Of a DNA stretch of 64,000 nucleotides, positions 3,659 through 56,229 are shown one piece after another. Within the stretch, counting starts at the first letter, position 1. Every line of letters begins with the position of its first letter. The translations under genes were made by a program, and so were the position numbers. This DNA is from Thermoanaerobaculia bacterium (GTDB taxonomy: Bacteria; Acidobacteriota; Thermoanaerobaculia; UBA5066). The notes under the pieces are model-generated. The model ran no database searches. It was not told the origin of the DNA and saw only the letters and a program-made list of their open reading frames with translations. Location of the stretch: assembly GCA_963719225.1 (NCBI GenBank), contig CAVRAY010000001.1, forward strand, positions 1,344,001 through 1,408,000, in the 5' to 3' direction.

Positions 3659-4864
3659 ATGAGGATCGCGGTCGTGGCCGGCGACGGGATCGGCCCGGAA
3701 GTGACGCGCGAGTCTCTGAAGGTGCTCGGTGCGCTGGCGTCGGTCGCCGAAGGCATGGCCCCTTCTCCTACTCGCGTGAACTCGCTTCGCTCAGACAGCA
3801 CGCTCGGGCGTCGAAGGGGTCATGCCTCCGGCTCCGATCCATTCATAGAAATCTCTCTATTCCCTTGGGGCGCAGATCACTATCTGAAAACGGGCGAGAC
3901 GCTTCCCCCGGGCGCGTTCGAGATGCTCGCGCGCGATTTCGACGCCGTCCTCGCTGGCGCCTTCGGCGACCCGCGTATCCCGGATGGGCGGCACGCGGAC
4001 GAGATCCTCCTCGGCATGCGCCACGGGCTCGACCTTTTCGCGAATGTCCGTCCCGTGCGCGCGCTCCACGACTCCCTCGTCCCGATTCGGAATGCGCGCG
4101 CCTCCGACGTCGACTTCGTCCTCTTCCGCGAGAACACCGAAGGAGCCTATTCGGGCCGGGGGCGCGTCGAAGGACCCGGGACCGCCGAGGAGGAGGCGGT
4201 GGAGGAGGATGTGACGACCCGGCGCGGCGTCGAGCGGATCTGCCGCGCGGCGTTCGCTTTCGCCGCGACCTTCGGGAAACCCCGGCGCCTTGGACGCCGG
4301 CCGCGCGTTCTCATGGCGGACAAGCACAACGTCCAGAAGCGCGGCGGCGGCCTGTGGCTGCGCGTCTTTCGCGAGGTGGCGAATGAATTTCCCGCCCTCG
4401 AGAGCCGGCACATGTTCGCGGACGCCCTCGCTCACGAGATGGTGAGGAACCCCGCCGCGCTGGACGTCGTCGTCACGAACAACCTCTTCGGCGACGTCCT
4501 GTCGGATCTCGGCGCCGCGCTGCAGGGAGGCCTCGGCCTCGCGCCATCCGGGAACGTGCGACCGAACAGCACGTCCGTCTTCGAACCGGTGCACGGCTCG
4601 GCGCCCGATCTCGCGGGGCAGGGGATCGCCAATCCCTTCGGCTCGATCCGGAGCCTCGGGATGCTGCTCGCGCACCTGGGCCGCGCGGATCTCGAGGGGC
4701 GGGTCGAAAACGCCGTCGCCGCCTGCGTGGCGGCGGGAGAGACGACGCGCGACCTGGGGGGAAAGCTCTCGACGGCAGAGGCCGGCGACGCCGTCGTCGC
4801 GCGGCTGGGCGACGGAACGGCTAGCAGGCTGCTGAAGAAAGGGCTCTTTTTCAAAGGAGCTTGA
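3659..4864 (+). CDS. leuB: Isocitrate/3-isopropylmalate dehydrogenase family (LeuB type 2-like); C-terminus supplied by IS end
   Basis: MRIAVVAGDGIGPEV, RENTEG, NLFGDVLSDL, FEPVHGSAPD; true start ATG 3659 inside ORF 2081..4864; substrate could also be tartrate/malate. Confidence 0.75.
   Translation: MRIAVVAGDGIGPEVTRESLKVLGALASVAEGMAPSPTRVNSLRSDSTLGRRRGHASGSDPFIEISLFPWGADHYLKTGETLPPGAFEMLARDFDAVLAGAFGDPRIPDGRHADEILLGMRHGLDLFANVRPVRALHDSLVPIRNARASDVDFVLFRENTEGAYSGRGRVEGPGTAEEEAVEEDVTTRRGVERICRAAFAFAATFGKPRRLGRRPRVLMADKHNVQKRGGGLWLRVFREVANEFPALESRHMFADALAHEMVRNPAALDVVVTNNLFGDVLSDLGAALQGGLGLAPSGNVRPNSTSVFEPVHGSAPDLAGQGIANPFGSIRSLGMLLAHLGRADLEGRVENAVAACVAAGETTRDLGGKLSTAEAGDAVVARLGDGTASRLLKKGLFFKGA
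3746..3832. repeat. 87-nt palindromic (REP/RPE-like) element inserted in frame in leuB
   Basis: GCCGAAGGCATGGCCCCTTC (3746-3765) pairs with GAAGGGGTCATGCCTCCGGC (3813-3832) at 18/20; inner GCGTG/CACGC stem; adds ~29 aa not typical of the family. Confidence 0.7.
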
Positions 4865-6153
4865 GCGGGAGAAGACACGTCAAGCTGAAAGAGGGGATTG
4901 CTTCGAGAGAGTGAGTCCGTGCTGCTCGCCTTTTTCGGCCCGCTTCGGTCGCACCGAGGGGCGCTTCAGGGGGAATCAGGCGGTCGAGGACTCCATTCGC
5001 GCCATTCGGACGAGGTTGTAGGCCGTCATCACGCTGAGGACGTGAGCCGCCACGCGGGCGAGTCCTCGGAAGCGCGTCTTGGCCAGGCCTCCGATGGTCT
5101 TACTCCAGCCGAAGATTTCTTCGACGCGCTTCCTGATTCGCTGGCTCACGGCGTAGCCCGCGTGTCTCGTCGTCCTTCGGTCGATGGCGCTGCGCCTGTT
5201 GGTGGTGTTCTGGGCCACGTGGGGCGTGACGCCTCTCTCTCGGAGCCTTTCGATGAAATCCCTCGTGTCGTAGCCCTTGTCGCCGGCCAGCGTGATGCGC
5301 TTGTCCGAGCCCAGCTCGTCGACCATGCCCAGTGCGGCCGACCTCTCCCCGTAGCCGTCGGCCGTCGTTACGCGCGCCTTCACGCACAGTCCGTTTCTGT
5401 TCTCCATCAAGACGTGGCCGAGGTAGCACAGCTGCGAAGGCTGGCCGTCTCCCTTCTTGTAGAGCTTGGCGTCGGGATCGGTCGTCGAGGCGTGCGTGTC
5501 GTTGCGCCTCTTCTGGCCGCGAAAGTCGACATCGGCGTTGCGGCCGCCAGGAGCTGGCGGCTCATCGCCGCCCTTACCGTCCTTGTCCTTCCGGGGCTGG
5601 AAGCTCTTCAAGGAGGCGTTCGCTTCGATCAGCGTGCCGTCCACGGTGAAGTGCTCGTCCGAGAGAAGAAACTTCTTGCGGGCCTGTGCGACGACTTCCG
5701 AGAAGAACTCCTCGAAGACCTCGGCCTCCAACAGTCTCTGGCGGTTCTTCGAGAAGGTCGTCGGATCGAAGGCCGGTGCAAGCCCCGGCATGTCCAGGAA
5801 CCAGCGGAAGAGAAAGTCGTACCCGAGCCGCTCGCAGAAGAGCCGCTCGCTTCTCACGCTGTACAGCGCGATGAGGATCTGCGCCTTGAGAAGCATCTCG
5901 GGCGGAATCGATGGACGCCCTCGCTCCGAGTACAGCCTGGCGAGCTTGGGCTCGAGACGCCTGAGCGCTTCGTCTGCAAGCGCCTTCACCTTGCGGATCG
6001 GGTGGTCCCGCGGCACGAGCTCCTCGGGCGTCATCGTCACGACAAGATCGACCTGCTTTTCGTTGTCTCCACGCATGCACATCAAGGTGCAGCCGCATCG
6101 CGCAGCAGTCAATGCCTCGCCGCGATTTTCAGGAGCCCTTTTTCAGCAGCCTG
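4825..6153 (-). mobile_element. IS5-family insertion sequence, 1329 bp, CTAG target duplication
   Basis: Left end CAGGCTGCTGAAGAAAGGGCTC vs reverse complement of right end CAGGCTGCTGAAAAAGGGCTC (12 bp perfect, then a 1-nt indel); CTAG at 4821-4824 and 6154-6157. Confidence 0.92.
4976..6076 (-). CDS. IS5-family DDE transposase
   Basis: MRG...VPRDHPIR, GRPSIPPE, TVDGTLIEA, ADKGYD-like GDKGYD, RKRVEEIFGW; TTGACT-17-CACCTT promoter just upstream on the minus strand. Confidence 0.9.
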   Translation of the reverse strand: MRGDNEKQVDLVVTMTPEELVPRDHPIRKVKALADEALRRLEPKLARLYSERGRPSIPPEMLLKAQILIALYSVRSERLFCERLGYDFLFRWFLDMPGLAPAFDPTTFSKNRQRLLEAEVFEEFFSEVVAQARKKFLLSDEHFTVDGTLIEANASLKSFQPRKDKDGKGGDEPPAPGGRNADVDFRGQKRRNDTHASTTDPDAKLYKKGDGQPSQLCYLGHVLMENRNGLCVKARVTTADGYGERSAALGMVDELGSDKRITLAGDKGYDTRDFIERLRERGVTPHVAQNTTNRRSAIDRRTTRHAGYAVSQRIRKRVEEIFGWSKTIGGLAKTRFRGLARVAAHVLSVMTAYNLVRMARMESSTA

Positions 6154-6477
6154 CTAGAGGACCCGGACGCGCACCTCGCGCATCGGCTCGGGCTCGTCGA
6201 GCTCCAGCTTCTCCTCGACGACGACGCGCTGAATGAGGCCCCGTTCCCCCTCGACGATCAGGGTGATGCCGGGCTCGATCTCGTCGAACGTCGCCTCGGC
6301 GACGGACTCGTCGGGGTTCTTCACGATGACCGACTCCACGACGGAGGGCTCGCCCGCGCGACCGGCGACGACGAGCCGGAACGTGGACGTCTCCTTGGCG
6401 TGCTTGTTTTTTTCCTTGCGGGCGAGCTCGCGGGCTCGCTTCTGCGCCCTTTTCTGGCGGATTTCCCAAGCCCTCAT
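6154..6477 (-). CDS. Hypothetical protein (basic N-terminus, acidic C-terminus)
   Basis: GGAAAGGAG SD 4 nt before ATG 6477; its TAG stop is the IS target CTAG. Confidence 0.65.
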   Translation of the reverse strand: MRAWEIRQKRAQKRARELARKEKNKHAKETSTFRLVVAGRAGEPSVVESVIVKNPDESVAEATFDEIEPGITLIVEGERGLIQRVVVEEKLELDEPEPMREVRVRVL

Positions 6478-6566
6478 GCCGCTCCTTTCCGGGCGCGAGA
6501 GAGCGCCGGAGCCCCGCATTATGACCGAGCCGGCTATCGGCTAATCTCGGCCGAGCGGAGGCAGCG

Positions 6567-7601: not shown

Positions 7602-7615
7602 GACCGCCGGGCTCG

Positions 7616-7644
7616 TTGTCGCGTCCGCCTGTCGGGCGTAGAGT
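7616..7644 (+). promoter_or_regulatory. sigma70-type promoter for the dioxygenase gene
   Basis: TTGTCG-17 nt-TAGAGT, followed by GAGGAGG SD before ATG 7677. Confidence 0.6.
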
Positions 7645-7676
7645 GAGTCTCGAGTCGACCGCGCCGAGGAGGATGA

Positions 7677-9235: not shown

Positions 9236-9240
9236 GCGAA

Positions 9241-10311: not shown

Positions 10312-10343
10312 GCCCCGATCCTGCCACGGCTCGGCGCGCGGCG

Positions 10344-12059: not shown

Positions 12060-12105
12060 GGGCACATTCTCGCCGCCGGTTCGGGCCTCGTCCACCACGA
12101 CGGGC

Positions 12106-13739: not shown

Positions 13740-14455
13740 CGGAGCGGCATCCGCGGCGCCGGCCCGGCCCGCAGGTCGGACGACTCTCCGAGACGAAGAA
13801 AGAAGAGAGACCCAGGGAGAAGATGCTTGGAAAGGGTCCCGAGCATCTGGACGACGAAGAGCTCCTCGCCATCGTTCTCGGCACGGGCAGCGTCCGTAGG
13901 CCGGTCCTCGAGATGGCGCACGACCTTCTCGCGGACGGCGGGTTCCCATCGCTGTTCGCGCGAGGCGCCGGCGATCTTCGCAGCCTCGTCCACGGAATCG
14001 GCCCGGCAAAGGCCACCCGCGTCGCGGCGATCCTCGAGATCGCGGCGCGTGTCTCCCATGATTCACTTTCTAAGAAAAATCTCCTCTCCGACCCTTCCTC
14101 CGTGAGCCGCTACCTCGTCGAGAGGCTCGCGCGCGAGACGCAGGAAGTCATGGGGGGCCTGCTCCTCGACTCCAAGAACCGCCTCGTGAAGGATGCTCTG
14201 TTGTTTCGCGGCACGGTGTCGCACGCGTCCGTCGCGCCCGCTCCGCTCTTCCGCCAGGCGATCCTCGCCGGAGCGGCAGGAGTGATCCTGTATCACAACC
14301 ACCCCTCGGGCGACCCCGAGCCTTCGCCCGAGGACCTCGCGACGACGCAGCGTTTCGCCGCGGCGGGCCGCGAGATCGGCATCGAGGTGAAGGACCACGT
14401 GATCGTGGGGCGCGGCCGGTGGGTCTCGTTCCACGATCGGGGGCTCCTGCGCTGA
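13736..14455 (+). CDS. radC: RadC/JAB-domain protein
   Basis: RPREKM..G...L.D.ELLAI.LGTG, GIGPAKA HhH, HNHPSGDPEPSPED, DHVIVG. Confidence 0.92.
   Translation: MTERHPRRRPGPQVGRLSETKKEERPREKMLGKGPEHLDDEELLAIVLGTGSVRRPVLEMAHDLLADGGFPSLFARGAGDLRSLVHGIGPAKATRVAAILEIAARVSHDSLSKKNLLSDPSSVSRYLVERLARETQEVMGGLLLDSKNRLVKDALLFRGTVSHASVAPAPLFRQAILAGAAGVILYHNHPSGDPEPSPEDLATTQRFAAAGREIGIEVKDHVIVGRGRWVSFHDRGLLR
13822..14089. repeat. Dispersed AT-rich motif pair (radC)
   Basis: Degenerate GATGCTTGGAAAGG (13822-35) ... CTTTCTAAGAAAAATCTCCTCTCC (14066-89). Confidence 0.45.
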
Positions 14456-17340: not shown

Positions 17341-20017
17341 TTGACGCTCGCACCAGGTTCGAAGCTCGGCCCGTACGAAATCCTCTCGCCCCTCGGTGCC
17401 GGCGGAATGGGAGAGGTTTACAGAGCCCGTGACGCGCGCCTCGGTCGCGAGGTTGCGGTCAAGGTCCTGCCGGAAGAATTCTTCGAAGACAAGGAACGGG
17501 TCACCCGCTTCGAAAGGGAAGCGAAGCTGCTTGCGGCGCTGAATCACCCGAACATCGCGGCCGTCTATTCATTCGAAGAAATCCCCGGTTCTCCGGGGTC
17601 TCCTGGTTCCTCCAGCCGTCACCTGCTCGTCATGGAGCTCGTGGCGGGCGACACGCTGCGCGAGCGGATGCGAGACGGGGCGCTGCCGGCGCGCAAAGCC
17701 GTGGAGATCGCCGTTCAGATCGCGGAGGGCCTGGCCGCCGCGCACGAGAAAGGGATCGTCCACCGGGACCTCAAGCCCGAGAACATCGTCCTGTCGAGAG
17801 ACGGCCGGGTCAAGATCCTCGACTTTGGCCTCGCGAAGCTCTTGCCGCGGGCCACCGCCGGTGACGACCCCACATCGGCCGGGACGCGGTCGCTTCTCAC
17901 GGAAGCCGGAACCGTGTTCGGGACCGTAAGCTACATGTCGCCGGAGCAGGTGTTCGGAGAGCCCGTCGACGGGCGCTCCGACATCTTCACCTTCGGGACG
18001 ATCCTCTACGAGCTGCTCTCGGGGACGAACCCCTTCCGGTCCGCGACGTCCGCCGAGACGATGACGGCGATCCTCAGGCACGAGCCGCCGCCGCTTTCGG
18101 AGCCGCCGCTCGCCGTGGCGCCGGCGCTCTCGGAGATCGTCGCGCGCTGCCTCGACAAGAGGCCGGAAAAGCGCTTTCAGACGGCGGAGGATCTCGCCTT
18201 CGGCCTGGAGATGTCGTCAGGCGCTTCGCTCTCGGCGGCGCCTGTTACGGGCCGGCACCCGGGTCGCCGCGTCGTCTGGGCGGTCGCAGGAGCCTGTGTC
18301 GCCGGCCTAGTTCTCGGCGCCTCGGCCGCTTTTCTGCTGAGGAGCCACTCGCGCGTCGCGCCGGCGAAGTCCATCCGCTTCACGATTCCGCCCCCTGAGA
18401 ACGGCTCCTTCTCTTTTGGGATCGAGTCGACGAGCCTCGCCTTCTCGCCGGACGGATCGCAGCTCGCATACATTGCCTCGGATCCGAAAGTAGGGCGACG
18501 CATCTGGCTCCGGGCCCTGTCCGGCTTCGAGGCGCGGCCGCTGGCGGGCACTGAGGAAGCCTGGTCGGTTTTCTGGTCCCCCGGCGGGTCGTCGATCGGG
18601 TTCTTCGCCGAGAACAAGCTGAAGCGTCTCGACCTTCCGGGAGGTGCGCCCGTTTCGGTCTGCGAGGTCGCCGGTGGAAGCGGCAAGTCGGGCACCTGGG
18701 GACGCGGTGGCGACATCCTTTTCGCCAGCGCCCAGGGCGATGCGATCTATCGCGTCTCTGCGTCCGGCGGTACTCCGGCCGCCATTCTGAAGCCCGACGC
18801 CTCGGTCGGCGAAACGCGGGTCGTCTGGCCCTGGTTCCTGCCGGACGGCGAGAGGTTCCTCTATTACGCGCGCGTCTTGGGCGGAGGAAAAGTCATGCTG
18901 AAAGAGCCCGGACGGCCTCCGCGTCTCGTGCTGACCGCGGCCTCGATGGCTCAGTACTCCGACCCGGGCTATCTCGTTTTCGTGAAAGACGGCGTTCTCC
19001 TCGGCCAGCCGTTCGACGCGGGCAGCGGGCGTCTGTCGGGACGTCCGTTTTCGATCGCCGATCACGTCCGCTACTTCATGTCGACGGCCGCCGGGTCGTT
19101 CGCCACGTCTCGGGGGGGCACCCTCGCGTTTCAGCCGCAGAACGACGTCCATCGCCTCGTGTGGTTCGACCGGACGGGCCGTGAGCTCGGGACGATCGGG
19201 ATGCCCGCCGAATATCTCGGCGTCCGGATCCCGGCGGACGGCAGCCCCGTTCTCTTCGATCGCGCCCGAGCCGACCTCGGGACGTTCGACGTCTGGTCGT
19301 ACGACGTCGAACGAAACGTCGAGACGCGCGTGACGTCTTCGCCGGACAGCGAGTTCGCGGCAATCTGGCTTCCCCGGCGGAAAGAGCGTTCTTTTCTCGG
19401 CGGTGAGGGGGTCGCCCCCTCGTCTCGTGCGTCGGGACCTCGCGACGGGCACGGAGAAGGAGCTCCTCCCGGAGGGCGGCTTTCAGAACGTCGGTGACAT
19501 CTCGCCGGACGGCCGGACGCTCGTGTACTTCGAGAGGAGCGACAGGAGTCCCTTCGCAATGTGGGCGCTTCCGCTCTCGGGGGAGGGAAAGCCGCGCCGC
19601 CTCCTCGAAGGGGCTTCCCTGGAGGACGATGCACGATTTTCGCCCGACGGCCGCTTCCTCGCGTTCATCTCCGGCGAGTCGGGGCAGCCCGAGGCCTACG
19701 TGATGCCGTTTCCGGGACCCGGGGAGAAGACACGGGTCTCGACGGGAGGCGCGAGCGTCGTGCGCTGGAGCCGAGACGGTCACGAGCTTCTCTACCTGGC
19801 CGGCGACCGGCGCATGACGTCGGTGCCGGTCAGGACCTACCCGTCGCTCCAGCTGGGTGCGTCCAAACCGCTTTTCGAGCTGAAGGGGCGGTTGAGCTGG
19901 ATCGCCTTCGATGTCTCCCCGGACGGCAAGCGTTTCCTCGCCGTGGTCCCGGAAGCGCTGGCCGACGATCTTCCCCTGAGCGTCGTCGTCAACTGGTCGT
20001 CCGACGTGGAGAAGTAG
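17341..20017 (+). pseudogene. Ser/Thr kinase with TM helix and TolB-like beta-propeller, split by a +1 frameshift
   Basis: Kinase motifs (GAGGMGEV, HRDLKPEN, DFG, GTVSYMSPE). Removing one C from the CCCC run at 19372-19375 joins ORFs 17341..19497 and 19403..20017 as WLPGGKSVLFSAVRG. Confidence 0.8.
17473..17586. repeat. Inverted pair of dispersed AT-rich TTC-N3-GAA motif (kinase gene)
   Basis: GAAGAATTCTTCGAAG (17473-88) ... TTCGAAGAAATCCCC (17572-86). Confidence 0.55.
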
Positions 20018-20039: not shown

Positions 20040-22214
20040 ATGGCGCGCCGCTACTTCACGACCCCGATCTACTACGTCAACGACCGGCCCCACATCGGGC
20101 ATCTCTACACCACGGTCGTCACGGACACGCTTGCCCGTTATTTCCGCCTCGCGGGGGAGGACGTGCGTCTTCTGACCGGCACGGACGAGCACGGGCAAAA
20201 CATCGAGAAGGTCGCGAAGAAGGAGGGCGTCGCCCCCATCGTCGTGGCCGACCGGCACGCGCCGACGTTCCGGAACCTGTGGAAGGAGTTCGGGATCGCG
20301 AACGACGACTTCATCCGGACGACCGAGCCGAGGCACCGCGTGGGCGTCGAGGAGATCATCCGACGCATCGACGCGGCGGGCGACCTCTATACCGCCTCTC
20401 ACGAAGGCTGGTATTGCGCGCCGTGCGAGGCGTTCTACCCGGAGAAGGACCTCGTGGACGGCAAGTGCCCCGTCCACGGGACGACGCTCGAGCTGCAGAA
20501 GGAAGAGAACGTCTTCTTCCGCCTCTCACGTTATGCCGGCCGCCTCCTCGAGCTGTATGGCGCAAAGAACGCCGACGGTCAGCCGTTCGTCTATCCCGAG
20601 AGCCGTCTCAACGAGGTTCGATCGTTCGTGGAATCCGGTCTCAAGGATCTCTCGGTGTCGCGGACGTCCATCACGTGGGGCATCCCGTTCCCGGGCCGGC
20701 CGGGCCACGTCGTCTACGTGTGGCTCGACGCGCTCGTGAACTACATCACCGCGCTCGGATTCGGCTCGAAGGACGAGACGCTCTACGAACGCTACTGGCC
20801 GGGCATCCACGTGATCGGGAAGGACATCCTGAGGTTCCACGCGGTCTACTGGCCCGCGTTCCTCATGTCGGCAGGTCTCGACGTTCCGCGGCAGGTCGTG
20901 AGCCACGGCTGGTGGCTGCGCGACGCGAAGAAGATGTCCAAGTCCACGGGCAACGTCGTCAAGCCCGACGAGCTCGTCGCCGCGTTCGGCGTCGACGCGC
21001 TGCGCTGGCACCTCGTCTCGGCGATGTCGTTCGGGCAGGACGCGAGCTTCTCCGACGAGGACTTTCTCGCCGGGTACAACGCGGATCTCGCGAACGGAAT
21101 CGGGAACACGCTCTCGCGCGCGGTGAAGATGTCGAGGGATTTCTTCGAAGGTAGAACGCCGCCGGAGAGGGATTCGAAGAAAAATTCCTTCGAATGGCCG
21201 AAGACCGCCACGGATCGGATCGCGAGATGGCGCACGGCATTCGAGGGCTACCGCCTTCATGAGGCCGCCGGCGAGATCCGATCGTTCCTGCAGCTCGTGG
21301 ACAGCTACATCACGACCAACCAGCCGTGGCGCACCCCGGCAGATCTTTCGCTCGAAGAAATCTCCCGGTTCCGCTCGCACGTGCTTTTCGACTGCCTCGA
21401 AGCTCTGCGCATCGCGGCCTGCCTTCTCGCGCCCATCGCGCCGCGCGCCGCGACGGAGATCTTCCGACGTCTCGGCGTCGACAAGCGCGCAGAAGACGTC
21501 CGCGGAGCCGACCTCGCGTGGGGCCAGCTTCCGCTCAGCGCCCCGCTCCCGTCCGCGCCGCCGCTCTTTCCGAGGGCGGACGCGAAAGAATATTTTGCTT
21601 CCAGAGGCGAATCCACGGGCAGTGCCTCCAAGGAGAGATCAGTGGCAGACGAAAGGTCCGAAGGTTCTTCGAAAGGTGTGTCTCAGGCAGGTGCCGCGGC
21701 GGGCGGCGGGGCTGATGGTGGCGCATCGCCCGCGCCGTCGCCGGCGGCCGGCGGCAGCGCGGGCGCGCTGACAGCGCCCGAGGCTGGTCGTTCTTCTCTT
21801 AATTCCCCTTCTAAGCAAAATCCACCATCGCCATCCGCTCCACCGCAGCAGGCGACGACTCCTGCTTCGCCCGGCGCGTCCGAAAGCAAAATCCCAATCT
21901 CCGACTTCCTGAGGATCGACCTTCGCGTGGGAGAGGTGATCGCGGCGGAGAAGGTGGAAAAGTCGAAGAAGCTGATGAAGATGACGGTGAAGCTCGGCGA
22001 CGAGGTGCGGACGATCGTCGGCGGCATCGCGACCGCATACACGGCCGAGCAGCTCGTCGGGAAGAAGTTCGCCTTCGTCGCGAACCTTCAGCCCGCGAAG
22101 CTCATGGGCGTCGAGTCGAACGGCATGATCCTCGCCGCCACCTTCCCGGAGACCGGCGAGCCGTCGCTCCTCATGGTCGATCCCTCGGTGCCTTCGGGAG
22201 CGAAGGTCAAGTAG
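20040..22214 (+). CDS. metG: Methionyl-tRNA synthetase with C-terminal tRNA-binding OB domain
   Basis: TTPIYYVN..PHIGH, GTDEHG, KMSKS, C-terminal IDLRVG...ANL.PAKLMGVESNGM; unusually long linker. Confidence 0.97.
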   Translation: MARRYFTTPIYYVNDRPHIGHLYTTVVTDTLARYFRLAGEDVRLLTGTDEHGQNIEKVAKKEGVAPIVVADRHAPTFRNLWKEFGIANDDFIRTTEPRHRVGVEEIIRRIDAAGDLYTASHEGWYCAPCEAFYPEKDLVDGKCPVHGTTLELQKEENVFFRLSRYAGRLLELYGAKNADGQPFVYPESRLNEVRSFVESGLKDLSVSRTSITWGIPFPGRPGHVVYVWLDALVNYITALGFGSKDETLYERYWPGIHVIGKDILRFHAVYWPAFLMSAGLDVPRQVVSHGWWLRDAKKMSKSTGNVVKPDELVAAFGVDALRWHLVSAMSFGQDASFSDEDFLAGYNADLANGIGNTLSRAVKMSRDFFEGRTPPERDSKKNSFEWPKTATDRIARWRTAFEGYRLHEAAGEIRSFLQLVDSYITTNQPWRTPADLSLEEISRFRSHVLFDCLEALRIAACLLAPIAPRAATEIFRRLGVDKRAEDVRGADLAWGQLPLSAPLPSAPPLFPRADAKEYFASRGESTGSASKERSVADERSEGSSKGVSQAGAAAGGGADGGASPAPSPAAGGSAGALTAPEAGRSSLNSPSKQNPPSPSAPPQQATTPASPGASESKIPISDFLRIDLRVGEVIAAEKVEKSKKLMKMTVKLGDEVRTIVGGIATAYTAEQLVGKKFAFVANLQPAKLMGVESNGMILAATFPETGEPSLLMVDPSVPSGAKVK
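21134..21823. repeat. Cluster of dispersed AT-rich TTC-N3-GAA motifs (metG)
   Basis: GAGGGATTTCTTCGAAGGTA (21134), TTCGAAGAAAAATTCC (21173), CTCGAAGAAATCTCC (21351), GGTTCTTCGAAAGG (21663), CCTTCTAAGCAAAATCC (21807). Confidence 0.6.
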
Positions 22215-49800: not shown

Positions 49801-52800
49801 GCGGGCCACTGGGTCGAGGTGCGCGCCTCGTCCGGCGTCCTGAAGGGTACGTGGCGCATCGGGACCACGCCGGGCGCGATCAACGCCAAGACGGTCACGC
49901 TCGTCCCGAACGACGTGGAGACGTTGTCGCTCGCCCCCGGCGATTCCTGGCAGGGTCTCTATCGTTTCGACTCGATGCGTGCCTCAGCCGCCGCCTTGGT
50001 CAGCAGCGGCGACCCGATCGAAGTTGTGGCCGCAGCAGGAACTACGATCACGGGTTCGGGCGACAGCACTGCTCCCTTCCAGGTGCGAGCGCCGCTGCGG
50101 GGCGCGAACCTGACGCTCGAGGCGGCCGTCGCGCTCGGGAAACCCGTCGACGGAGGAAACCTCACGGTGAAGTCCGGAGCGATCGTCACGCCCGCCTTCG
50201 GCATCGGCCTGTCGCGGCCCTTTGGCCTCTCGATCAGCCTCTCCGGAGCTCTCGTGGTCGAGAGCGGAGGCGCAATCGACACGAGCACTTATGGCTATGG
50301 ATCCGTCGAGACATATCCGGGAGCCGTGACGGCGGGATCCGGGGTGGGGGGTGGACATCTGGGCCTCGGAGGGCTTGGTACTCCCGGAGGGACGTTCGGG
50401 AGTGTGACGCGTCCGCAGGAAGCTGGCGGAGGGGGATGGGCGTACTCCGGCGGCGGAATCGTCAGAGTGGTCGCCCCTGCGGGAATTACGATCGACGGTG
50501 CAATTCGGGCGAACGGACAGGACGTCGCTGCCCCCGGCGTTTTCGGGGCGGGGGCGGGTGGCTCCGTATGGTTGACGACGTCCGCGACGCTTGCAGGAGC
50601 GGGTGTAATCGAAGCGAGCGGAGGCAAGCTGGTCGTCGCGGGGGCTGCCGCTGGAGGCGGCGGCGGTGCCGTCGCGCTGGAATACGGGTCGGTCATCGGA
50701 ACGGTCGTCGCCAACTCTCGCGCGACCGGGGGCACGGGAGCGGGTGCAGCGCGCAGCGCTGGAGCGGGGACGATCTGGACGAAGGGGGCCGCGTCGACGT
50801 TTGGCGACCTTCTGATCGACAACGGAGGGACGACAGGTCAGGCGACGGTCCTGCCGTCGCTCGGGAGCGGGATTGTGCAGGCCGGCAGTGCCGGAACGAC
50901 GCTCGTGACGGACCGGGCCGCAGACATCCCGGCGTACTTCGCTGGGCACTGGGTGGAGATCTCGAACTCTTCGAGCGCCTTGAAGGGCACGTGCCGGATC
51001 TCGACGGCACCGGGCGGGATCGTCGCCAGGACCGTCACGCTGACGTCGTGCAGCTCGTCCTTCTCCGTCGATCCTCTCGACAAATGGCAGGGCGTTTACA
51101 TTTTCGATTCGGTCACGACTCCCAACAACGAACTCTTTCAGAGCATCGACCCGTTCCGCCTCGGCGGAAACAGGCCGATCACACTCAACGGCCCCACGGC
51201 CGCAGGAAAATATCTCGAGGTGCCGGGAACCGTCTTGGGCACGGCAGTGACGGTGACCGGAAACGTCTCGGTCCTCTCCATCGCCGCGACGAGTCTCACC
51301 GTGAAGTCAGGAGCAATTCTGACGCACCCGGTCACGACCGCGAGCACGACGAACAGCCTCGCGATCGCCGTGTCGGGAGCGCTCACGCTCGAATCCGGCG
51401 CCTCGATCGACGCGACGGGGCGCGGCTACCCGTTCGGAAAGACGTATCCGGGCGTCGCTCCTACCAACCCGGGCGCGAGCCACGTGGGCCTCGGCGGACA
51501 GAACGTGAACCCGGCCCTCGCCTACGGCAGCGTGTACCGTCCCGCCGAGAACGGCGCGGGAGTGTTGGCCGGCGGCGGCGCGGTGCGCGTGACCGCCGAC
51601 TCGATTTCGTTCGCCGACGCGACGAGCCTCATCCGCGCGAACGGAACGGACGATCCTTCGACCGGCGGCTCCGGCGGCGCGGGCGGCTCCGTCTGGATCA
51701 CGGCGGCATCCGTTTCGGGGAACGGAAAGATCGAAGCCCGCGGCGGCGACAGCCAGTCGTTCACCGGGACCGGCGGCGGCGGCGGGGCGGTCGTCGTGGA
51801 ATACGGGACCGCGGCCGGGACGTGGACATCCGGCGTCCTCGCGCGCGGGGGCGCGGGCAGTGGCGGCTCCGGCGTGAACCGCGATGGAGGGGCGGGCACC
51901 GCACTCCTGAAGAGCGCGTCGTCCACGTTCGGGGATCTGACCGTGGACGACAGCGGCAGGAACGCACCGACCGTGCTGCCGGCCCTCGGGAGCGGCGTTG
52001 CCCACGCGGGAAGCACGGGCGGCACACTCGTACTCGACCGGCTCTCGTGGGTGGCGCCGTTCTTCTCTGGGAACTTCGTGGAAGTCCGGAATTCGTCAGG
52101 CGGCCTGAAGGGGACGTGGCGCGTCGAGTCGATCTTCGTGCCTCAGGCGACCCAGGTCGTCGCGGATCTCGAGATCGACACACAGCCGAACCTCGCCTAC
52201 GACGGTTACTTCTTCAACTCGGGCCTCACGCTCACGCAGCACTTCGGAGGAAGCGCTCAGCCGGGCTTCGGAAACAGCCACTTCTTCGCGGCCCGCTTCT
52301 TCAACGGCCTGTGGCAGTACGACAACAAGACCGCATTCGTCACATTTACTCCCGATCCGTCTGACCGCGTTTTCGCGTCGTTCCACAAGGGCAACGGCAC
52401 GCCGACGATGACGTCGAGCCCCTGCCCCGGCGGCGCTTGTGCGCCCGTGAATGGCGTCCAGACGATCGCGGCGGCCCGCGGCCGCGTCCGAATGGGTACC
52501 TTCCTCAATGGCACGACCGACCTCAACAACATTGCGCTGGTTCTTCTGGACCTGATCCTGGCCTCGGAACCGCAGCGTCTCGTGCTCGAAGCCCCCGCGG
52601 ACGTCCAGCCCGGCGACGGCTGGCAGGGCGTCTACCGGTTCGATTCGCTGAAATCCCCGAACGGCGCGACGCTCGTGAGCGCCGACCTCATCCGGCTCGG
52701 GACCTCCAGCGCGAGCACGATCTCGGGAGCGACGGCCGGAACCCAGTATCTCGACATCGCGGGCGCGTCCATCTCGGGGCCGGCTGGCTTCAACTCGGAC

Positions 52801-55800
52801 ATCGCGATGAGCGGGCGCGTCCTCGCGGCGTCGATCGCCGGCTCGAGTCTCACGATCAAGTCCGGCGCGACGTTGACGCATCCCGCCACCGGGAACACCA
52901 GCGGCGGGCCCAAGAACCTGACGGTAAACGTGAGCGGTGCCCTGACCCTCGAGTCGAACGCCACCATCGATGTCTCGGGCCGCGGCTACTCGGCGGTCGT
53001 CTCCTACCCGAATACCCCGATCCCGGGCGCGGGAAGCGGCGGCAGCCACCTCGGATCCGGAGGGCTGGCGGGGTCGCCCCTTGGCGCCACCTACGGCAGC
53101 ATCGAACACCCGTCGGAGAACGGCAGCGGCGGACGGGACGACGCCGGAAACGCCGGCTACGGTGCCGGCGGAGGCGCCATCCGGATACAGGCGGGCTCCG
53201 TCGTTTTCACGGACGCCACCTCGACCGTTCGCGCGAACGGCAACAGCCTCTGCGGGTCGCCGGCGGGCGGCGCAGCGGGCGCGGGCGGGTCGGTGTGGCT
53301 CACCGCCACCGGCGCGATTTCCGGAGACGGGAAGATCGAGGCGAAGGGCGGGGACTGTGCCATCGCGCGGGGTGGTGGCGGCGGAGCGGTCTCCCTTGAA
53401 TACGCCACGACGTCGGGCACCGTCCTCGCGAACGCTTCGGCCGCCGGGGGCGCGGGCTTCGCGACGGCCGCGACGAACTCTGGCGGAGCAGGCTCGGTCT
53501 TCTTCCGTGGTCCGACCTCCGTCTACGGCGACCTCCTCCTGAACAACGCGGTCCGCACGGGAGAGACAACGGTCCTTCCGACGCTCGGAAGCGGTGTCGC
53601 CCAGCCAGGGAGCGCCGGAGCGGCCCTGATCGTGCTCACCTTTTCGCCGGTCCCCGCGTACGCGGTCGGACGGTGGATCGACGTCTCGACTTCGGCCGGA
53701 GCGCTCAAGGGAACGTGGCGGATCGGCTCCATCACGAACCAGGCGCCGTCGGGTTCCTTCACGAAGCAGACCTTGAACCTCCTCCAGAACCAGTCGGAGA
53801 CGATCGCCGTCGCTCCACTCGACAAGTGGCAGGCCGTTTATCTCCTGGACTCGTTGTCGATCAAGAACGGGGCGAGCCTCGTGAGCGCGGATCCGGTCCG
53901 CACGGCCTCCGTCACACTCGACGGCACCGCCGTTCCCGTCGTCGGAGATGTCGTGGCGGCGTCGGGCAGCGCGGAGGTCAAGGGAGCCGTCACGGCGCGC
54001 CGCATCGACGCGGCGTCGCTCGCGATCCGTGCGGGCGCCACGTTGTCACATCCGGCGATCGGCACGGACCCCACGAAGCCGGAGCGCCTCACGCTCAACG
54101 TCGCCGGCACGCTCACGATCGAGAGCGGCGCGACCATCGACGTCACGGGGAAGGGCTACGTCCTCGCGACGACGTATCCGGGGGCGACCGTCTCGGGGAC
54201 CGGCGCCGGTGGCAGTCACTTCGGCGTCGGCGGAACGGGAACGGGCGCCGGCGGATCCACGTTCGGGAATCCGGAATGGCCGGCGGAAGCGGGCGGCGGT
54301 GCCGGCGGCGGCTTCGGAAGCTCCGGAGGCGGCAGCGTGCGGATCGTCGCCGGGACTCTCGCGTTCGGAGACGCCACGAGCGCGATCCGGGCCAACGGCG
54401 GCATCACGAGCTACCGGACGGGCGCGGGCGGCTCGGTCTGGATCACCGCGGGCGCGCTCTCCGGCGACGGGGTCATCGAGGCGCGGGGCGGCGACACGAC
54501 GGGCGTCGGCGACGGGCGCGGCGGCGGCGGCGCGATCGCCATCGAATATGCTTCGGCGTCCGGGACCGCCCTCTCGAACCTTTCCGCGCGCGGCGGAAAC
54601 GGCTCCAGCAACGGCGGCCCGGGTACGATCCTCGTCAAGGGTCCCGGCTCGTTGTTCGGCGATCTGACGATCGACCGGAAGGGCGTGATCGGGGCGGGGA
54701 CGATCCTTCCCTCTCTCGGGTTCGGCTTTGCACAGGGTGGAACCAACGGCACCACGCTGGTCACGGACCACCTCACCGAGCAGCCGAAGTATTTCGTCGG
54801 ACGCTGGGTGGAGATCCGCGATGCGAGCGGCACGACCCTGAAGGGCACCTGGAGGATCACGGCGGCGTCGTTCGGCGGACCCTTCGAGCAGCAATTCTTC
54901 ACGCTCGCGCCGAACGAAGCCGAGGTGATCGACATCCTGGTCGGCGACCGGTGGCAAGCCGTTTATCGCTTCGACAACCCCCCGACGCTCCTCGGCGGAG
55001 CGACGCTCGCGAGCGTCGATCCGATCCGCATCGGCGGCACGCTGCTGAGGGCCGGGCCCTCCGCCGCGTCGATCCCGGCCGCCCAGACGATCCGCTCGGT
55101 CTCGCTCTGCACGGACATCGGCGAGGCGCTCAAGCCCGGCGGATCCTTCGCCATTTGCGCCGATTCGATCGCGCGCGATCTCACGCTCGAGATCTCGGGC
55201 GCGTTCGAGGCGCGGATCGCCGCATACGGTAACTGCCGCGATCCGATCGCGATTCCGGGCTCGGCGAAGCCGGGGCCGCTGACGATCGTCGCGAGCGCGC
55301 GGGACGCCGAGGGCCGGACGGCTTCGGCCACGGCACACGCGCTCGTCGTCGCGGACGAACGCGCGCCCGTCCTCGTGTCCGTCGAGCCGGCGCCTTCGGC
55401 GGCGCTCCGGTCGGGCGATCCGCTGCGCGTCGCGGTCGAGGCGTGGGACGACGTCGGGATCGCGTCTGTCGCCATCACCCTCGGCGGGAAGCGGGCGATC
55501 CTCACGGCGCCGCCGTACGAGATCTTCGCGCTCGCGCCGCCGGTCGCGTCGAAGGAGTCGCTGCAAGTCGTCGTCGAGGTCTTCGATCCGTCGGGCAATG
55601 TCTCGCGCCGCGAGATCGACCTCGGCGTCCTGCCGTCCGGCGCACCGCTGCCCGCGTTGGCGGCGGCGCCTGGGACGCCGGCGGAGGGCATCTCGCTCGC
55701 GGACGGCAGGCTCGCGGTGGACGGCGGCTGGCCATGGCGCGACGCCGACGGCGAGACGCGAGGCCGCACGCTCGAGCTGCCCGCGATCGGCACGCACACG

Positions 55801-56229
55801 GTTCTCGCGGTCGGCGGCACGGACGGAACGGTCGTCGCGCTCGACGGCCCGGTCGCGCGCGCCGCGGTGCATGGGGGATCGGTGGACGTTTCTCGCAGCG
55901 GCGTTCTCGTGGGGCGCTTCAGAATTCTTTCTGTTTCGGAGGATGGGACGGCCATGGGCCTCGAGGGCGAGGCGTCGGGGAAGATCAGAGAGGGGGATTT
56001 CTTAGAAGGTAATTGGGCTTTCGGAAACATCGATCTTTCGCGCGGCGCGATTTTGCGTGCGGTGGACGCTGTCGAGGCGCGATCCATCCACGTCGACGCC
56101 TCGTCCCTCTTCCTTTCTAAGAATCTTCAAATCCCCTCTCCGGGTCCCGCGCCTCGCGAATGCGTTTCGCGCGGGGCACGCCCCGATCCTCCGGGCACTC
56201 CGCCTACGCCTGCCGGGAGCGCGCCATGA
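37900..56229 (+). CDS. Giant (~6100 aa) secreted multidomain protein: carboxypeptidase-regulatory-like repeats, Big_5/Ig-like domains and Gly-rich repeat array
   Basis: Uninterrupted ORF with strong GC3 coding bias; signal peptide after TTG 37900 (alternative start 37786); G.V.G.V....G.PV..A.V repeats; FSEP..; D..PP Ig linkers; five ~320-aa GGGAVRI/GAGGSVW repeats. Confidence 0.88.
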   Translation: MRTVRTIAVLASLCVLASFDAVAQPGGPFGTAQLQISGARLTIYTDSLTNDADQTLNVGEPGRVRTCYGAGAACGSTTAGAVPGLKVVGELSGPELPQAVTYEIAPGGTFFLPGFQREGDYLLENIRLVEMATDRVLANAEPSLATLHVRQILLASATVTRLTLAELQARGIALTQQNFQAFSFSVGFLFAGQLVNIELPVLFQTDGKILPLDKQKVKLDDLPDSVRHEVRRWEPPQIVPFSLNLPPKDAKDPPDVEPEVLSVPLYGAIVIPGNVSFLNQFFDARLIVANGAPNGSNATLQNVTGALRLPTDGSLRIAATTPPVSVGQKLPLTKANGSGVVGPGEQGTAGWTVEGLVAGTQTLRMEIAADLVRPGHLTLPLVGSVQAAVEVVDARFNLTFNHPDVVREGEAYSLYVTVTNLSRAAQNLVTVELLSQNITGAHQADPTDPFRQTIATLDPGASETLEFRLVSDTTGKCVATTFQSSSPGLSGTIHLRTGVGELGIPLSPASLVLPRFSELLPRALLTADVRLLGLAYSLAVAPAGAAPPGLPHVVKSDVVRRAVDLGEAGQRLYLQERLLESLEVLALDQMGNRDDLADYDTLRRSLAKGAAAATALSDLFRQEQQNRNLAAADFVDHFASTTDYGRPYLAAGLVPNGTQPLPVLEVRQVGASGTSFLARTSDDATRLRTVPYGEVYALADVPGGTTRAPFALVGRLDSATSYRVDLHAPATGASGRLILVVPTDDLAGFRKVDFGFVTMGANEVWEVRAVGAAGDTPLSFGLYFPTSGIPVPGVSAPAITVLQLPPFRVIGAVEDFTLDRYGLGLSYLFNRPPDKAAAETASSYTIRSTFHGQDTSSPPLTFDKVVTKSGGAAFWQPNSERVVDVRYQSPISALNGLVDGIPVIRHEHLLATNAIRDTHGTPLEPQVPAALIEPNHTGGLVDGRVLLGTGEPAAGAIVQLIRYHSVGTEPGGSPLIVPDLVAETTTSSDGAFYFDFIEEPPQNAVLSGFHIRATVPPGSDPTQQPGGSEEVSSTIRLQNRLVHVNIALLGRGTVKGTLVYADNGAPVPNGHVAAASTLFSEVKDVVVASDGSFTISALPVGPITLTGSDASGNRVYQTVALQQPGQTVNVALRIPRTTPPKTGTVIGRVLRQRSGTPLPLPDPSPGAQVAVYSNGAFIGQAVSDASGSFRFEKVPEGQVQVQAADFSISRTRAIGGAVLPADGTVSITLTLSDAAPRVVTGRVLFHESATNTDVPVQGAVAFIVGPGVFAYTDASGTYRIEAVPVQGAFDPPYGVTAIDFTRQLQGIANLPPILDVGDGSPIRAPDIVLRAMTGGVDGVVLDPLGHPIGGISVQIPFGPSTTTRSDGHFSFDDVGVGGVSLVAHAGNGLSPGKVGFFGTGFAAIVFGGHRPFATIRLQGSGVVNIHTRTATSTGVLSPIHYKPTIYRDDTYSIEGKPDPPIETTTDQDGRLQLIVPLGSTAVTAFSGFGSKSVTATLRYPGEVVNLEIVFDSLSTVTGHVVGVDGVTPVPDVDVFLTATGLLPQRQRADGQGGFRYELVPSGSVSVTTEALVGSVDRVGRADGRLTSGQTIDLTVVLRAQGTVKGRVFQLVGSTLVPIPFARYTISESAYPNRRLPGGVATYATDANGAYEVSHLFAGPITVVAADPGQVTRQGRATAEITSDFQVLQMPDIVLATSVGSLSVLVRDPETGSPVPDCQITLSNGDVTVSDAQGQASFDALPLGTYSVYAFHAPTGQGGVVNGLRLLNPGDHVDGTIILDTRGQISGTLWDDPPKSRGVGNGTVQLTGRVNGRLWGTSLTALASTSSDAATLGRFLFDGIPVGSFTLVAAVSDSARRASTSLDLTTTAPVAAVDLVLEQLEDRYVRIFQNLTAAPHLFEIDPSGGVFNVELTQPPGTCNPNCTYDFLLSVPTSPYPNHLFKFPAVYASRPLLVDVREASGEQRRGSISGLASLPGAGSASDPYRVVLGAKGTVNVLVRDGGGNPVSGATVTLTSSAISQFGSATDGSGRVTFNAVPGGNLMVSAKLSSTGFGGIATGVLTYDDETVDFIVNLAPAVSAHGIVYHPLAGDVYTGDPSSLVPEDKAIVQIRDSSNQLQIVQTGPDGKYRFNVLRTGAYAISASNQTGESVAAGAGTLAGPDGNDNALPDLLLDASRPLIVSLTPSPGQAGVSRGALVEIVFSEPLLSAVLPTGAPSSPYFTLRSGATGLIAVGTWNSLLNTQGQQIVRFTPSALYDNSTVYSLTIAGGPGGVRDRAGRPLTDSGDVGSNFTTSDTVGASVVGSVPPITVPVDPAGEIRFDFSEVVSGTASELDGDGVGDAAELFWQQNGSPTWQPIPITMFLTRGGYSLTVQPPSGVTYPNDSLKRRIHISRLRDVSGNPMAGYDQTFRIWDTNAPHVDVAFPPGAPGGDLFGGNNYVLTPALSSLDDPSNGPGGDIDRVDYFLASAGDPISPSPTPVYSGRVSPFAFSFVAAYVGNGVDPRPFPVWVQAVDTSTNKSNVVKLAMQVVPNAPPVVASVGAAALSPVAGTFYAGSAVRATAFGVADPDGSQVTLAVELRRDHPGVPNDPTDLVATPASRLVTRPPTGWLDLVPPDFDTSIPVSMAEGTSLFFRVKATDTLGAAATVESLRFAVAHDPNPPTIDSFVARAAGASSPATRFTIGQKFVVEFRARDAETAVQTVSLALSDVFASPQAATLVAGTTNLYRTGELTVPTGLPPAGTAVTATASATDWGANTGTGTLSFLVSPSPDPYAPAVEWISPWEGSLWPAAYTSVLSAQGAALLLRASVTDKDQDASGDIPGTIVSVEFRGPADAAGTLAAAFTPGILVPGTNAPGAGTYQLQWRVPNGVVDGASLPFEVRATDTGGNVTTQSMRMRASKFRKVYEGAQTAALPGDAILAPGGAASGPVFLLDGATLSVYPQTDSTVRTLTSLFIWAGAQDGTLVVNPSVLTAPEVTSYASSVLFYALELTVTDTMGLGAACRIDMSARGLLGSTPTQSMILPGQTGSQQYAGGSHGGSGTPGSPSGGFARTDLSPAGSVYDAVKDPSLPGGGGGYATGGTGTTPTGGGTGGGVVRLLAPGATMHLGGDVLADGGDGPGGFTGGGGAGGAIRIVAARIEGAGTLSAGGGRGTNGNTAGGGGGGRVSLSFADPPSAALALKLSAAGALNAPPPDANAQQRAGAGTIYVEETDAFGVPKAPGKLIVTNGSGKPAWPTPFSGAQRFGAVEAHGAARLVFDDDLSVGPVDPGALNDRASLALDLEARALLKPDLPQIALTASPDGGDVKTGQQLSASYTLSDPLGLFGWMTAFSPSGSTASTFADEPVTFSSGVLSLQVPASQPPGPITYSLQVSDRAGRSQSVTKSWTVLPDSPPSLALTALTPGPSVLPGTVLTATATASDDVGLTRVVFTLSGAIATSDTRNVNTASTVQVFSYTLPNNLAAGQTVALQVDAFDTFGHKTSASPVTYTIVADTVPPVITSVALSPVKAGDVYTTGDDVTFTVTATDNVALARINLTIGGNTTPFTSSPAVIIFRAPNVTGSTPFTLDVEVFDVAGNRSTASRTISVVPAGGGTFPVVSFTCPTAGAYLPSTYAAFQLVATASDGAGITKIEFFRPGDSTPFSTSTPPSGAPTSYVGTSTAITLPTVPGDTIVTYRARAWNAASHSTDVSVDVHVVPTVDIATAKASDVAVVRTGTVTLDTPKTFAGLVILKGAALTHSATLAVGAEKSLNLTVNGPTYVECGGAINVTGKGYPSGMTYPGAALSGAGGHLGKGGPGDTYGSVARPQEAGSNNGGGIVRISSFSAFVVDGTIAADGANGASGAAGGAGGSVWLTTSGLLAGSGIVQARGSLGSASAGGGGGGAVALEFGSSSGGVVANSRADAPNAGSSATGGAGTVLIKGPASQLGELRIDPRGVFSGPPQTVLPSFGSGTAQPGTSGPTLVTDRSANVPAYFAGHWVEVRASSGVLKGTWRIGTTPGAINAKTVTLVPNDVETLSLAPGDSWQGLYRFDSMRASAAALVSSGDPIEVVAAAGTTITGSGDSTAPFQVRAPLRGANLTLEAAVALGKPVDGGNLTVKSGAIVTPAFGIGLSRPFGLSISLSGALVVESGGAIDTSTYGYGSVETYPGAVTAGSGVGGGHLGLGGLGTPGGTFGSVTRPQEAGGGGWAYSGGGIVRVVAPAGITIDGAIRANGQDVAAPGVFGAGAGGSVWLTTSATLAGAGVIEASGGKLVVAGAAAGGGGGAVALEYGSVIGTVVANSRATGGTGAGAARSAGAGTIWTKGAASTFGDLLIDNGGTTGQATVLPSLGSGIVQAGSAGTTLVTDRAADIPAYFAGHWVEISNSSSALKGTCRISTAPGGIVARTVTLTSCSSSFSVDPLDKWQGVYIFDSVTTPNNELFQSIDPFRLGGNRPITLNGPTAAGKYLEVPGTVLGTAVTVTGNVSVLSIAATSLTVKSGAILTHPVTTASTTNSLAIAVSGALTLESGASIDATGRGYPFGKTYPGVAPTNPGASHVGLGGQNVNPALAYGSVYRPAENGAGVLAGGGAVRVTADSISFADATSLIRANGTDDPSTGGSGGAGGSVWITAASVSGNGKIEARGGDSQSFTGTGGGGGAVVVEYGTAAGTWTSGVLARGGAGSGGSGVNRDGGAGTALLKSASSTFGDLTVDDSGRNAPTVLPALGSGVAHAGSTGGTLVLDRLSWVAPFFSGNFVEVRNSSGGLKGTWRVESIFVPQATQVVADLEIDTQPNLAYDGYFFNSGLTLTQHFGGSAQPGFGNSHFFAARFFNGLWQYDNKTAFVTFTPDPSDRVFASFHKGNGTPTMTSSPCPGGACAPVNGVQTIAAARGRVRMGTFLNGTTDLNNIALVLLDLILASEPQRLVLEAPADVQPGDGWQGVYRFDSLKSPNGATLVSADLIRLGTSSASTISGATAGTQYLDIAGASISGPAGFNSDIAMSGRVLAASIAGSSLTIKSGATLTHPATGNTSGGPKNLTVNVSGALTLESNATIDVSGRGYSAVVSYPNTPIPGAGSGGSHLGSGGLAGSPLGATYGSIEHPSENGSGGRDDAGNAGYGAGGGAIRIQAGSVVFTDATSTVRANGNSLCGSPAGGAAGAGGSVWLTATGAISGDGKIEAKGGDCAIARGGGGGAVSLEYATTSGTVLANASAAGGAGFATAATNSGGAGSVFFRGPTSVYGDLLLNNAVRTGETTVLPTLGSGVAQPGSAGAALIVLTFSPVPAYAVGRWIDVSTSAGALKGTWRIGSITNQAPSGSFTKQTLNLLQNQSETIAVAPLDKWQAVYLLDSLSIKNGASLVSADPVRTASVTLDGTAVPVVGDVVAASGSAEVKGAVTARRIDAASLAIRAGATLSHPAIGTDPTKPERLTLNVAGTLTIESGATIDVTGKGYVLATTYPGATVSGTGAGGSHFGVGGTGTGAGGSTFGNPEWPAEAGGGAGGGFGSSGGGSVRIVAGTLAFGDATSAIRANGGITSYRTGAGGSVWITAGALSGDGVIEARGGDTTGVGDGRGGGGAIAIEYASASGTALSNLSARGGNGSSNGGPGTILVKGPGSLFGDLTIDRKGVIGAGTILPSLGFGFAQGGTNGTTLVTDHLTEQPKYFVGRWVEIRDASGTTLKGTWRITAASFGGPFEQQFFTLAPNEAEVIDILVGDRWQAVYRFDNPPTLLGGATLASVDPIRIGGTLLRAGPSAASIPAAQTIRSVSLCTDIGEALKPGGSFAICADSIARDLTLEISGAFEARIAAYGNCRDPIAIPGSAKPGPLTIVASARDAEGRTASATAHALVVADERAPVLVSVEPAPSAALRSGDPLRVAVEAWDDVGIASVAITLGGKRAILTAPPYEIFALAPPVASKESLQVVVEVFDPSGNVSRREIDLGVLPSGAPLPALAAAPGTPAEGISLADGRLAVDGGWPWRDADGETRGRTLELPAIGTHTVLAVGGTDGTVVALDGPVARAAVHGGSVDVSRSGVLVGRFRILSVSEDGTAMGLEGEASGKIREGDFLEGNWAFGNIDLSRGAILRAVDAVEARSIHVDASSLFLSKNLQIPSPGPAPRECVSRGARPDPPGTPPTPAGSAP
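55988..56140. repeat. Inverted pair of dispersed AT-rich TTC-N3-GAA motif (end of giant gene)
   Basis: GAGAGGGGGATTTCTTAGAAGG (55988-56009) ... CCTTTCTAAGAATCTTCAAATCCCCTCTC (56112-56140). Confidence 0.6.

Follow-up and report, generated by a model that had tools for sequence, protein, structure and literature searches.

The same AT-rich motif recurs inside unrelated genes of a 64-kb stretch of Thermoanaerobaculia DNA (the window, by which we mean the whole of that stretch), and an earlier note had suggested a DNA-level signal written onto coding sequence. Is there such a signal, and what might read it? We addressed this in the window and in the genome that holds it (G000; 4.75 Mb in two contigs, C1 and C2; 97% complete), in which our own dicodon model called 3,922 genes, whose start positions may be off.

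The arm and its copies

An iterated matrix found 910 sites of at least 16 bits genome-wide, 465 in reverse (R) and 445 in forward (F) orientation. The site, hereafter the arm, is asymmetric and about 30 bp long (F-strand consensus CCCTCTTCACC-TTC[T/G]AAGAA-A(A)TCTTCTCT; 28 bits in total), with a sharp 9-bp core, whose columns stand at 86–99%, and a pyrimidine-rich tail of TCTTC-like units that fades over 30–40 bp. The word TTCTAAGAA and its complement occur 273 times in the genome, and the window has 5 copies of YYTTCKAAGAAW where 0.05 ± 0.22 are expected, a count reached in 0 of 100 shuffles; 800 kb of a motif-free relative gave a single match to the matrix. The bare TTC-N3-GAA, previously given as the motif core, is not itself the signal: the window holds 28 such cores, 8 of them of the KAA type. 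The approximately 910 sites comprise 893 distinct 29-mers, and the only long identical copies are those borne by insertion sequences (IS). Thirty-two of the sites lie in the second half of C2 (C2:460000-871796), which is probably a chimeric join. This half mirrors the first at about 82% identity, with two tmRNAs and a duplicated tRNA-Pro, and foreign-looking genes stand at its end.

In the window, motif-like sequence was present at all 12 positions quoted earlier, and Pfam backed the host genes named there (leuB-like, radC, kinase, and metG). Arms were scored with the genome-trained matrix, and partners were accepted at a score of 7 or more. The copy in the leuB-like gene (Pfam Iso_dh) is a real forward arm (3828..3864, + strand; core 3842–3850; score 24.7), but no partner was found at that cut-off. 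In radC (Pfam RadC), a forward arm encoding LSKKN (14054..14090, +; core 14068–14076; score 33.9) has its partner at 244 bp, a weak reverse arm at the start of the gene (13810..13846, −; core 13824–13832; score 10.9). The Ser/Thr kinase gene carries a reverse arm (17465..17501, −; core 17479–17487; score 17.5; EEFFE) and a forward arm (17558..17594, +; core 17572–17580; score 30.5; SFEEIP), and their 93-bp spacing is common to kinase paralogues. The most crowded gene is metG, where a reverse arm (21127..21163, −; core 21141–21149; score 25.5) encodes DFFEG, against DAFGG in the alignment of motif-free relatives. A copy reported as forward at 21173 has no forward score; the matrix instead places a second reverse arm there (21172..21208, −; core 21186–21194; score 20.6). 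A forward arm encoding LSLEEI (21337..21373, +; core 21351–21359; score 16.0) closes the pair over the anticodon-binding domain. The metG linker holds another reverse arm (21651..21687, −; core 21665–21673; score 13.7) and, 144 bp from this partner, a forward arm encoding PSKQN (21795..21831, +; core 21809–21817; score 30.2); the linker contains a forward arm in 7 of 7 aligned genus relatives as well.

Between 21809 and 55999 the matrix gave no score of 7 or more, in agreement with the claim that most of the giant gene lacks copies. Near the 3′ end of this 6,098-codon gene, a reverse arm (55985..56021, −; core 55999–56007; score 30.8; DFLEG) and a forward arm (56101..56137, +; core 56115–56123; score 31.5; LSKN) form a 116-bp pair, whose spacer (56008..56114) is coding and unrelated to other spacers. 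The copies at 21136–21153 and 55994–56011 are indeed 17/18 identical. Two giant genes stand in tandem (37936–56229, 6,098 codons; 57083–64000, 6,418 codons), motif-free except for this one pair. One arm in the window was additional to those reported before: a reverse arm (4885..4921, −; core 4899–4907; score 20.0) in the downstream end of an IS5-type element (4820–6156; DUF772/DDE), an element with 9 near-identical copies in the genome. An IS110/IS1111-like element with 5 genome copies also carries one arm.

Paired arms and the DNA between them

When adjacent sites lay 55–300 bp apart (n = 359), the reverse arm preceded the forward arm (RF) in 278 cases, as against 37 FF, 34 RR, and 10 FR; in the genus relative G019, RF made up 135 of 167 pairs. 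Orientation is therefore non-random and RF-dominant in both genomes. The claim that copies are always paired with the reverse copy first stood as a rule but not as a universal: 72.5% of 600 strong sites have an opposite arm inward of them, and 1.8% have one outward. Spacings from about 20 nt had also been proposed, but those below 55 bp are rare. RF spacing begins near 68 bp, peaks at 75–77 bp, and tails to 300 bp (median 110), and additional arms occur in tandem 20–40 bp outward of pairs. In other genomes, 34 of the 80 strict pairs among the matches listed were spaced 75–77 bp apart, under a pattern that admits only spacings of about 63–91 bp. Helical phasing of the spacing was not detected (1.7 versus a null 95% limit of 4.5), which counts against a rigid short loop. 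A 30-bp step was unsupported, and a 25-bp period (P = 0.0025 in G000) was absent in G019.

Could the pairs reflect DNA or RNA structure rather than recognition? A cruciform, intramolecular triplex, or mRNA stem, or a local mutational bias, would involve no sequence-specific reader; arms have a purine-rich strand and a TCTTC-like tail, and consensus arms are able to pair across the spacer. However, the two arms of a pair match the consensus and resemble each other no more than they do arms from other pairs (z = 0.33 for 278 pairs; 2.4 for the 9-bp core alone), and positions within arms covaried neither as palindromes nor as mirror repeats, the fixed TTC/GAA core aside. Swapping arms left single-strand folding energy unchanged. 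The sharpness of the core, a minimum spacing not required for hairpins, and a clade limit that is abrupt at similar GC also oppose this explanation. The BoxC/PIT/TM triplex motif is likewise purine/pyrimidine-rich and can occur in inverted tandem copies, but comparison by eye with the published consensus (PMC4666352) showed that BoxC/TM has a different one, and its hairpin-plus-third-strand layout is absent here; TM is intergenic in E. coli, in 23 copies (PMC4666352). We regard a purely structural or mutational origin as very improbable. Terminators, templated writing of a fixed copy, invertons, and triplexes were each rejected; in the case of invertons, there were no locus-specific matching inverted repeats, consistent with the arm-to-arm z value above.

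The sharp core, the lack of covariation, the fixed polarity, and the minimum distance together point to a protein that reads each arm in duplex DNA, with a bend between the two. It is likely that the arms are protein-read sites. Each would be read independently in double-stranded DNA, and two complexes might fit only with about 68–76 bp between cores, the GpC-rich spacer being bent or wrapped between the bound arms.

The spacers are mutually unrelated, except for kinase paralogues, assembly duplicates, and short weak matches (64 of 278 had any match), and yet their silent sites are remodeled too. GC at codon positions 1/2/3 was 0.74/0.58/0.79 in spacers versus 0.70/0.50/0.88 in the same genes, and at residues identical to the outgroup GC3 was 0.791 (n = 201) versus 0.879 (n = 5,895; P = 6.5e-4). 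Enriched spacer words were GpC-rich (GCGCC, GCCGC, and GCAGC). An arm-anchored GpC signal of 10–11 bp reached 112 against a null maximum of 31 in 150 draws, a weak signal in that it spans only 2–3 cycles and pools two related genomes.

Codon overwriting and its clade limits

The motif had been described as lying inside genes. This applies to 633 of the 910 sites, 581 of which are at least 60 nt from both gene ends, but the other 277 lie outside gene calls, in only 11% of the genome. Transcribed-strand bias was absent (315 F versus 318 R in genes). Two synonymous nulls, genome-wide and within-gene, were shuffled 20 times each, and genes showed a strong excess over both: TTCTAAGAA occurred 75 times versus 1.0 and 2.0, respectively, and TTCTTAGAA 92 times versus 0.4 and 1.2. 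Of the 269 genome copies of the rare TTA codon, 76 fall in motif windows. In an alignment of MetG from 29 genomes, sites were confined to genus g1 and two rows of the sister genus g12; motif-free genera have DAFGG(K/R)TP, and 5 of 8 genus members have D(F/Y)F(E/G)G(K/R)TP. The imposed peptides are thus absent from orthologues in motif-free relatives. Shuffle excess, pair orientation, and these missing peptides uphold the proposal of a DNA-level signal written onto coding sequence. Many aminoacyl-tRNA synthetase, tRNA-modifying, and DNA-repair genes, recognized by eye on C1, carry pairs.

Sites are conserved in position. In G019 orthologues of genes with compared sites, which differ by about 35% at synonymous positions, 36 of 49 sites were kept at 16 bits and 45 of 49 at 8 bits. 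Amino-acid difference from G019 was 0.31–0.41 beside arms versus 0.22 elsewhere, and gaps took up 4–12% of columns beside arms versus about 1% or less elsewhere.

Did whole units insert and then decay? REP/REPIN with RAYT and Rickettsia palindromic elements are inverted doublets of a lineage-specific repeat, some of them in genes. Ends of such non-autonomous repeats, or of MITEs, could be mobilized in trans by a transposase or nuclease, their insertions then becoming blurred through decay and amelioration; inverted arms, a modal size near 85 bp, the indels beside arms, and the tandem outward arms would fit. Comparison with orthologues in the motif-free outgroup G070 was divided: among 20 whole in-gene pairs, 3 were mostly inserted and 5 mixed, but 12 enclose native coding sequence, and 29 of 36 scored arms (one place entered twice in this count) align with at most two gaps, the remaining 7 lying in insertions. 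An inserted unit with a shared interior was not apparent, since, with the exceptions named above, spacers have no copies elsewhere, and the diversity of 29-mers tells against copying. The arms, moreover, are not hairpins and mostly overwrite, and Y1 transposase (PF01797) had no match in G000. We consider this origin improbable. A single reverse transcriptase was found, at the end of C2 among the foreign-looking genes.

The pair pattern was present in 28 of 28 genomes of g1, 5 of 8 of g12, and 0 of 26 in eight other genera of the family, genomes that are kin rather than independent points. In the MetG tree, the two genera group together as a clade (94/95). A 12-bp arm pattern had 27–245 copies in 24 of 24 genus genomes and none in 16 genomes of the order’s other families; five g12 genomes have 5–58 copies of a single-arm pattern. 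When 401 genomes of the phylum were drawn, four g1 genomes had 84–181 copies and the other 397 had 6 or fewer. A one-genome-per-species scan gave at least 119 loci, and the 80 among the matches listed were all Acidobacteriota or Thermoanaerobaculia. No other AT-rich motif was prominent in 400 kb around dif of G070, and no pair was found in viral contigs. The sequencing runs among the matches listed included no RNA set, only contigs of relatives with 5–10% of words. A solitary pair spaced like that of the kinase, at 93 bp, occurs in a genome of another family (G237:C33:12206-12311), perhaps through transfer or mis-binning.

With this boundary inside one family, genome subtraction should be able to find the cognate gene, and motif-free orthologues allow the protein cost of the motif to be measured.

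A gradient toward dif and its possible causes

A dif-like site lies at C1:2,037,583, at the turn of GC skew; on C2, dnaA lies at 326 kb and a probable parS at 334 kb, dif and parS having been located by their general sequence patterns. Sites per 300 kb fall from 92 and 101 beside dif to 33 and 44 at 1.5–1.8 Mb on the two chromosome arms. From dif to the origin, density drops 3–6-fold in core genes, in intergenic DNA, and in two other genomes, and it correlates with distance from dif (Spearman’s rho = −0.77, 38 bins). With 14 IS-borne sites removed, coding density declines outward as 23.6, 9.5, and 3.5 per 100 kb at constant GC3, and intergenic density as 9.8, 4.3, and 2.2 per 10 kb. Genes shared with G019 (930 orthologues, from the 1.5 of its 3.9 Mb analyzed) hold 32.0/30.1 sites per 100 kb in the terminus block versus 7.0/4.1 in the origin block. 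The gradient was repeated in a third genome, G079, with 24/19/14/8 strict copies per 0.5-Mb distance class (the last class spans 674 kb, the others 1,000 kb). Asked where copies lie relative to ori and ter, the data thus give a graded answer, highest near dif. Unpaired sites have no strand bias (85 R and 76 F left of dif; 92 R and 70 F right of it).

Gene class also matters: shared genes exceed unshared ones 3–5-fold (28.8 versus 10.1 and 10.6 versus 1.9 sites per 100 kb), and density is 49.8 per 100 kb in proteins of 65–75% identity against 11.5 above 85%. Some features were counted against a chromosomal role. Sites are clumped rather than evenly spread (CV of gaps 1.27), arms beside dif were found in 7 of 10 genus genomes, the sister genus has low copy numbers, and no factor was found. 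In G019, a dense terminus-type block adjoins parS with its density retained, either by recent rearrangement or by mis-join; density hence tracks block history (or the mis-join) rather than present distance. Few genes were relocated between G000 and G019, and those are site-poor.

Known systems share some of these traits. Noc sites belong with matS and SlmA sites among position-biased sites, and KOPS become more abundant toward the terminus. The Lactococcus highly repetitive motif and cyanobacterial HIP1 are over-represented genome-wide in genes, with unexplained function; to our knowledge, neither has fixed-polarity spaced pairs or a terminus gradient, which would set the present motif apart. 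Macrodomain-biased sites are known and can lie in coding regions (PMC3116907). The motif resembles matS/MatP and SlmA sites in its position bias, including toward the terminus, its tolerance of coding DNA, and its lack of replichore polarity, but those are single 12–13-bp palindromes in 23–50 copies, and MatP binds the Ter macrodomain only (PMC3116907); the motif is a two-arm site whose spacer varies, it numbers about 900 arms, and its density changes smoothly, with no cognate protein found. AIMS also rise in abundance to the terminus but are 8-mers with leading-strand bias (PMC5993296), whereas our motif is unbiased and symmetric as a pair. In E. coli, Ter is poor in Topo IV sites (PMC10117906), which hence lend no support. 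DUS of Neisseria and USS of Pasteurellaceae come close in another respect: they are asymmetric, number hundreds of copies in both orientations, and impose peptides (PMC2817400, PMC7811141), lying in shared genes at poorly conserved residues and rarely in unshared genes (PMC2817400). The present motif has the same high-copy, asymmetric, peptide-imposing character in shared, moderately conserved genes, but differs in its fixed-polarity pairs 60–300 bp apart in genes, remodeled spacer, clumping, and dif-directed grading. It fits no described family tested, as judged from these comparisons and from a full-text literature search of incomplete coverage, with no description of the motif among the matches listed.

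Our tentative first choice, to which we give somewhat less than even chances, is that RF pairs are putative two-arm sites of a lineage-specific DNA-binding protein, with a bent spacer, that handle terminus-side DNA. Pairs would accumulate by stepwise substitution and small in-frame indels where the protein tolerates them, the benefit per pair would increase toward the last-replicated DNA, and bound pairs might assist in organizing or segregating the chromosome’s terminus side. This chromosomal role is less certain than the reading of arms by a protein. It is favored because the gradient survives gene-class and composition controls and is foreign to uptake sequences, whose spread is more even than random (PMC2817400). 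Selection at the level of the organism is hard to credit, in turn, since about 900 sites of 28 bits alter residues in essential enzymes; E. coli has 23 matS or 50 SlmA sites (PMC3116907).

Because it best accounts for this cost and for the core-gene bias, molecular drive is the main rival, albeit an unlikely one. An uptake or export machine would prefer pair-bearing fragments, perhaps with the duplex folded into a U-turn between two bound arms, and better alleles would replace residents by homologous recombination without any chromosomal function. As a conjecture of our own, fixation might be more frequent toward the terminus, since DNA there is least often accompanied by a sister copy. The motif shares the proteome signature of DUS/USS, namely core-gene bias and a peak in moderately conserved proteins (PMC2817400), as well as their scale of copy number and information content. 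Two IS families bear an arm in a non-coding end, uptake is thought to begin at kinked duplex (PMC7811141), and comEC-, dprA-, comM-, and type IV pilus-like genes are present, as recognized by eye or by short patterns. On the other hand, DUS/USS are spaced more evenly than random (PMC2817400), unlike the clumped and graded sites here, and close USS pairs are reported to give no better uptake, the tight ones being terminators (PMC7811141). Tight terminator dyads at gene ends are not what we see: 178 of 278 RF pairs are entirely coding, and convergent genes flank just 3 of the 52 intergenic pairs. The sequence patterns used detected no lineage-specific pilin or ComEA. The terminus gradient favors the chromosome-organizing branch over a plain uptake signal.

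A bolder form of the chromosomal reading seems to us rather doubtful. It holds that the pairs are a new bacterial chromosome code of divergently paired polar protein sites, each holding a small bent loop and serving as a two-way boundary or anchor element. Hundreds per chromosome would be graded from origin to terminus, with a single origin that predates the split of two Thermoanaerobaculia genera, and would be strong enough to rewrite essential enzymes. In any event, the motif joins proteome rewriting on the scale of uptake sequences with the terminus bias of architecture sites, and its two-arm geometry occurs in neither. A chromosomal role, if true, would be a new way of organizing a bacterial chromosome; drive, if true, would make this the third lineage in which drive has built such signals, and one whose recognition geometry is new.

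The search for a cognate protein took in six candidates, all of which failed (among them the Y1 transposase and the reverse transcriptase above), and two by-eye screens that cover part of the proteome. A possible likeness of the core to parS and Noc half-sites led nowhere. A ParB paralogue beside dif was rejected, being present in 28 of 30 genomes of the order, including motif-free genera with the same recognition helix. A ParC-like subunit had strong matches in all ten genera, motif-free ones included, and a histone fold was found in 0 of 63 genomes. A basic 164-aa protein (C1:3836045-3836539) was found in 56 of 63 family genomes, including 17 of 17 of motif-free genus g18, and was likewise rejected as reader; it has no Pfam family, Atlas matches below 0.9, and an AT-hook-like stretch, and is a possible nucleoid protein. 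A by-eye screen of 250 basic soluble proteins (part of the proteome) and a by-eye comparison of the dif-proximal block with one outgroup gave no better candidate.

Other features of these chromosomes were noted in passing. A second parA/parB pair directly adjoins dif (C1:2037865-2039524), the usual parAB and parS being at the origin, and a dif-like sequence lies within about 300 bp after the ParB paralogue in most loci among the matches listed. One sister-genus contig (G050:C1) has two dif-like sequences about 1 Mb apart. In G000, repeated attC-like sites with IS110-like insertions occur at C1:2195000-2210000 and at about C1:1103000-1116000, and an integron-integrase-like gene was recognized by eye at C1:1,115,037.
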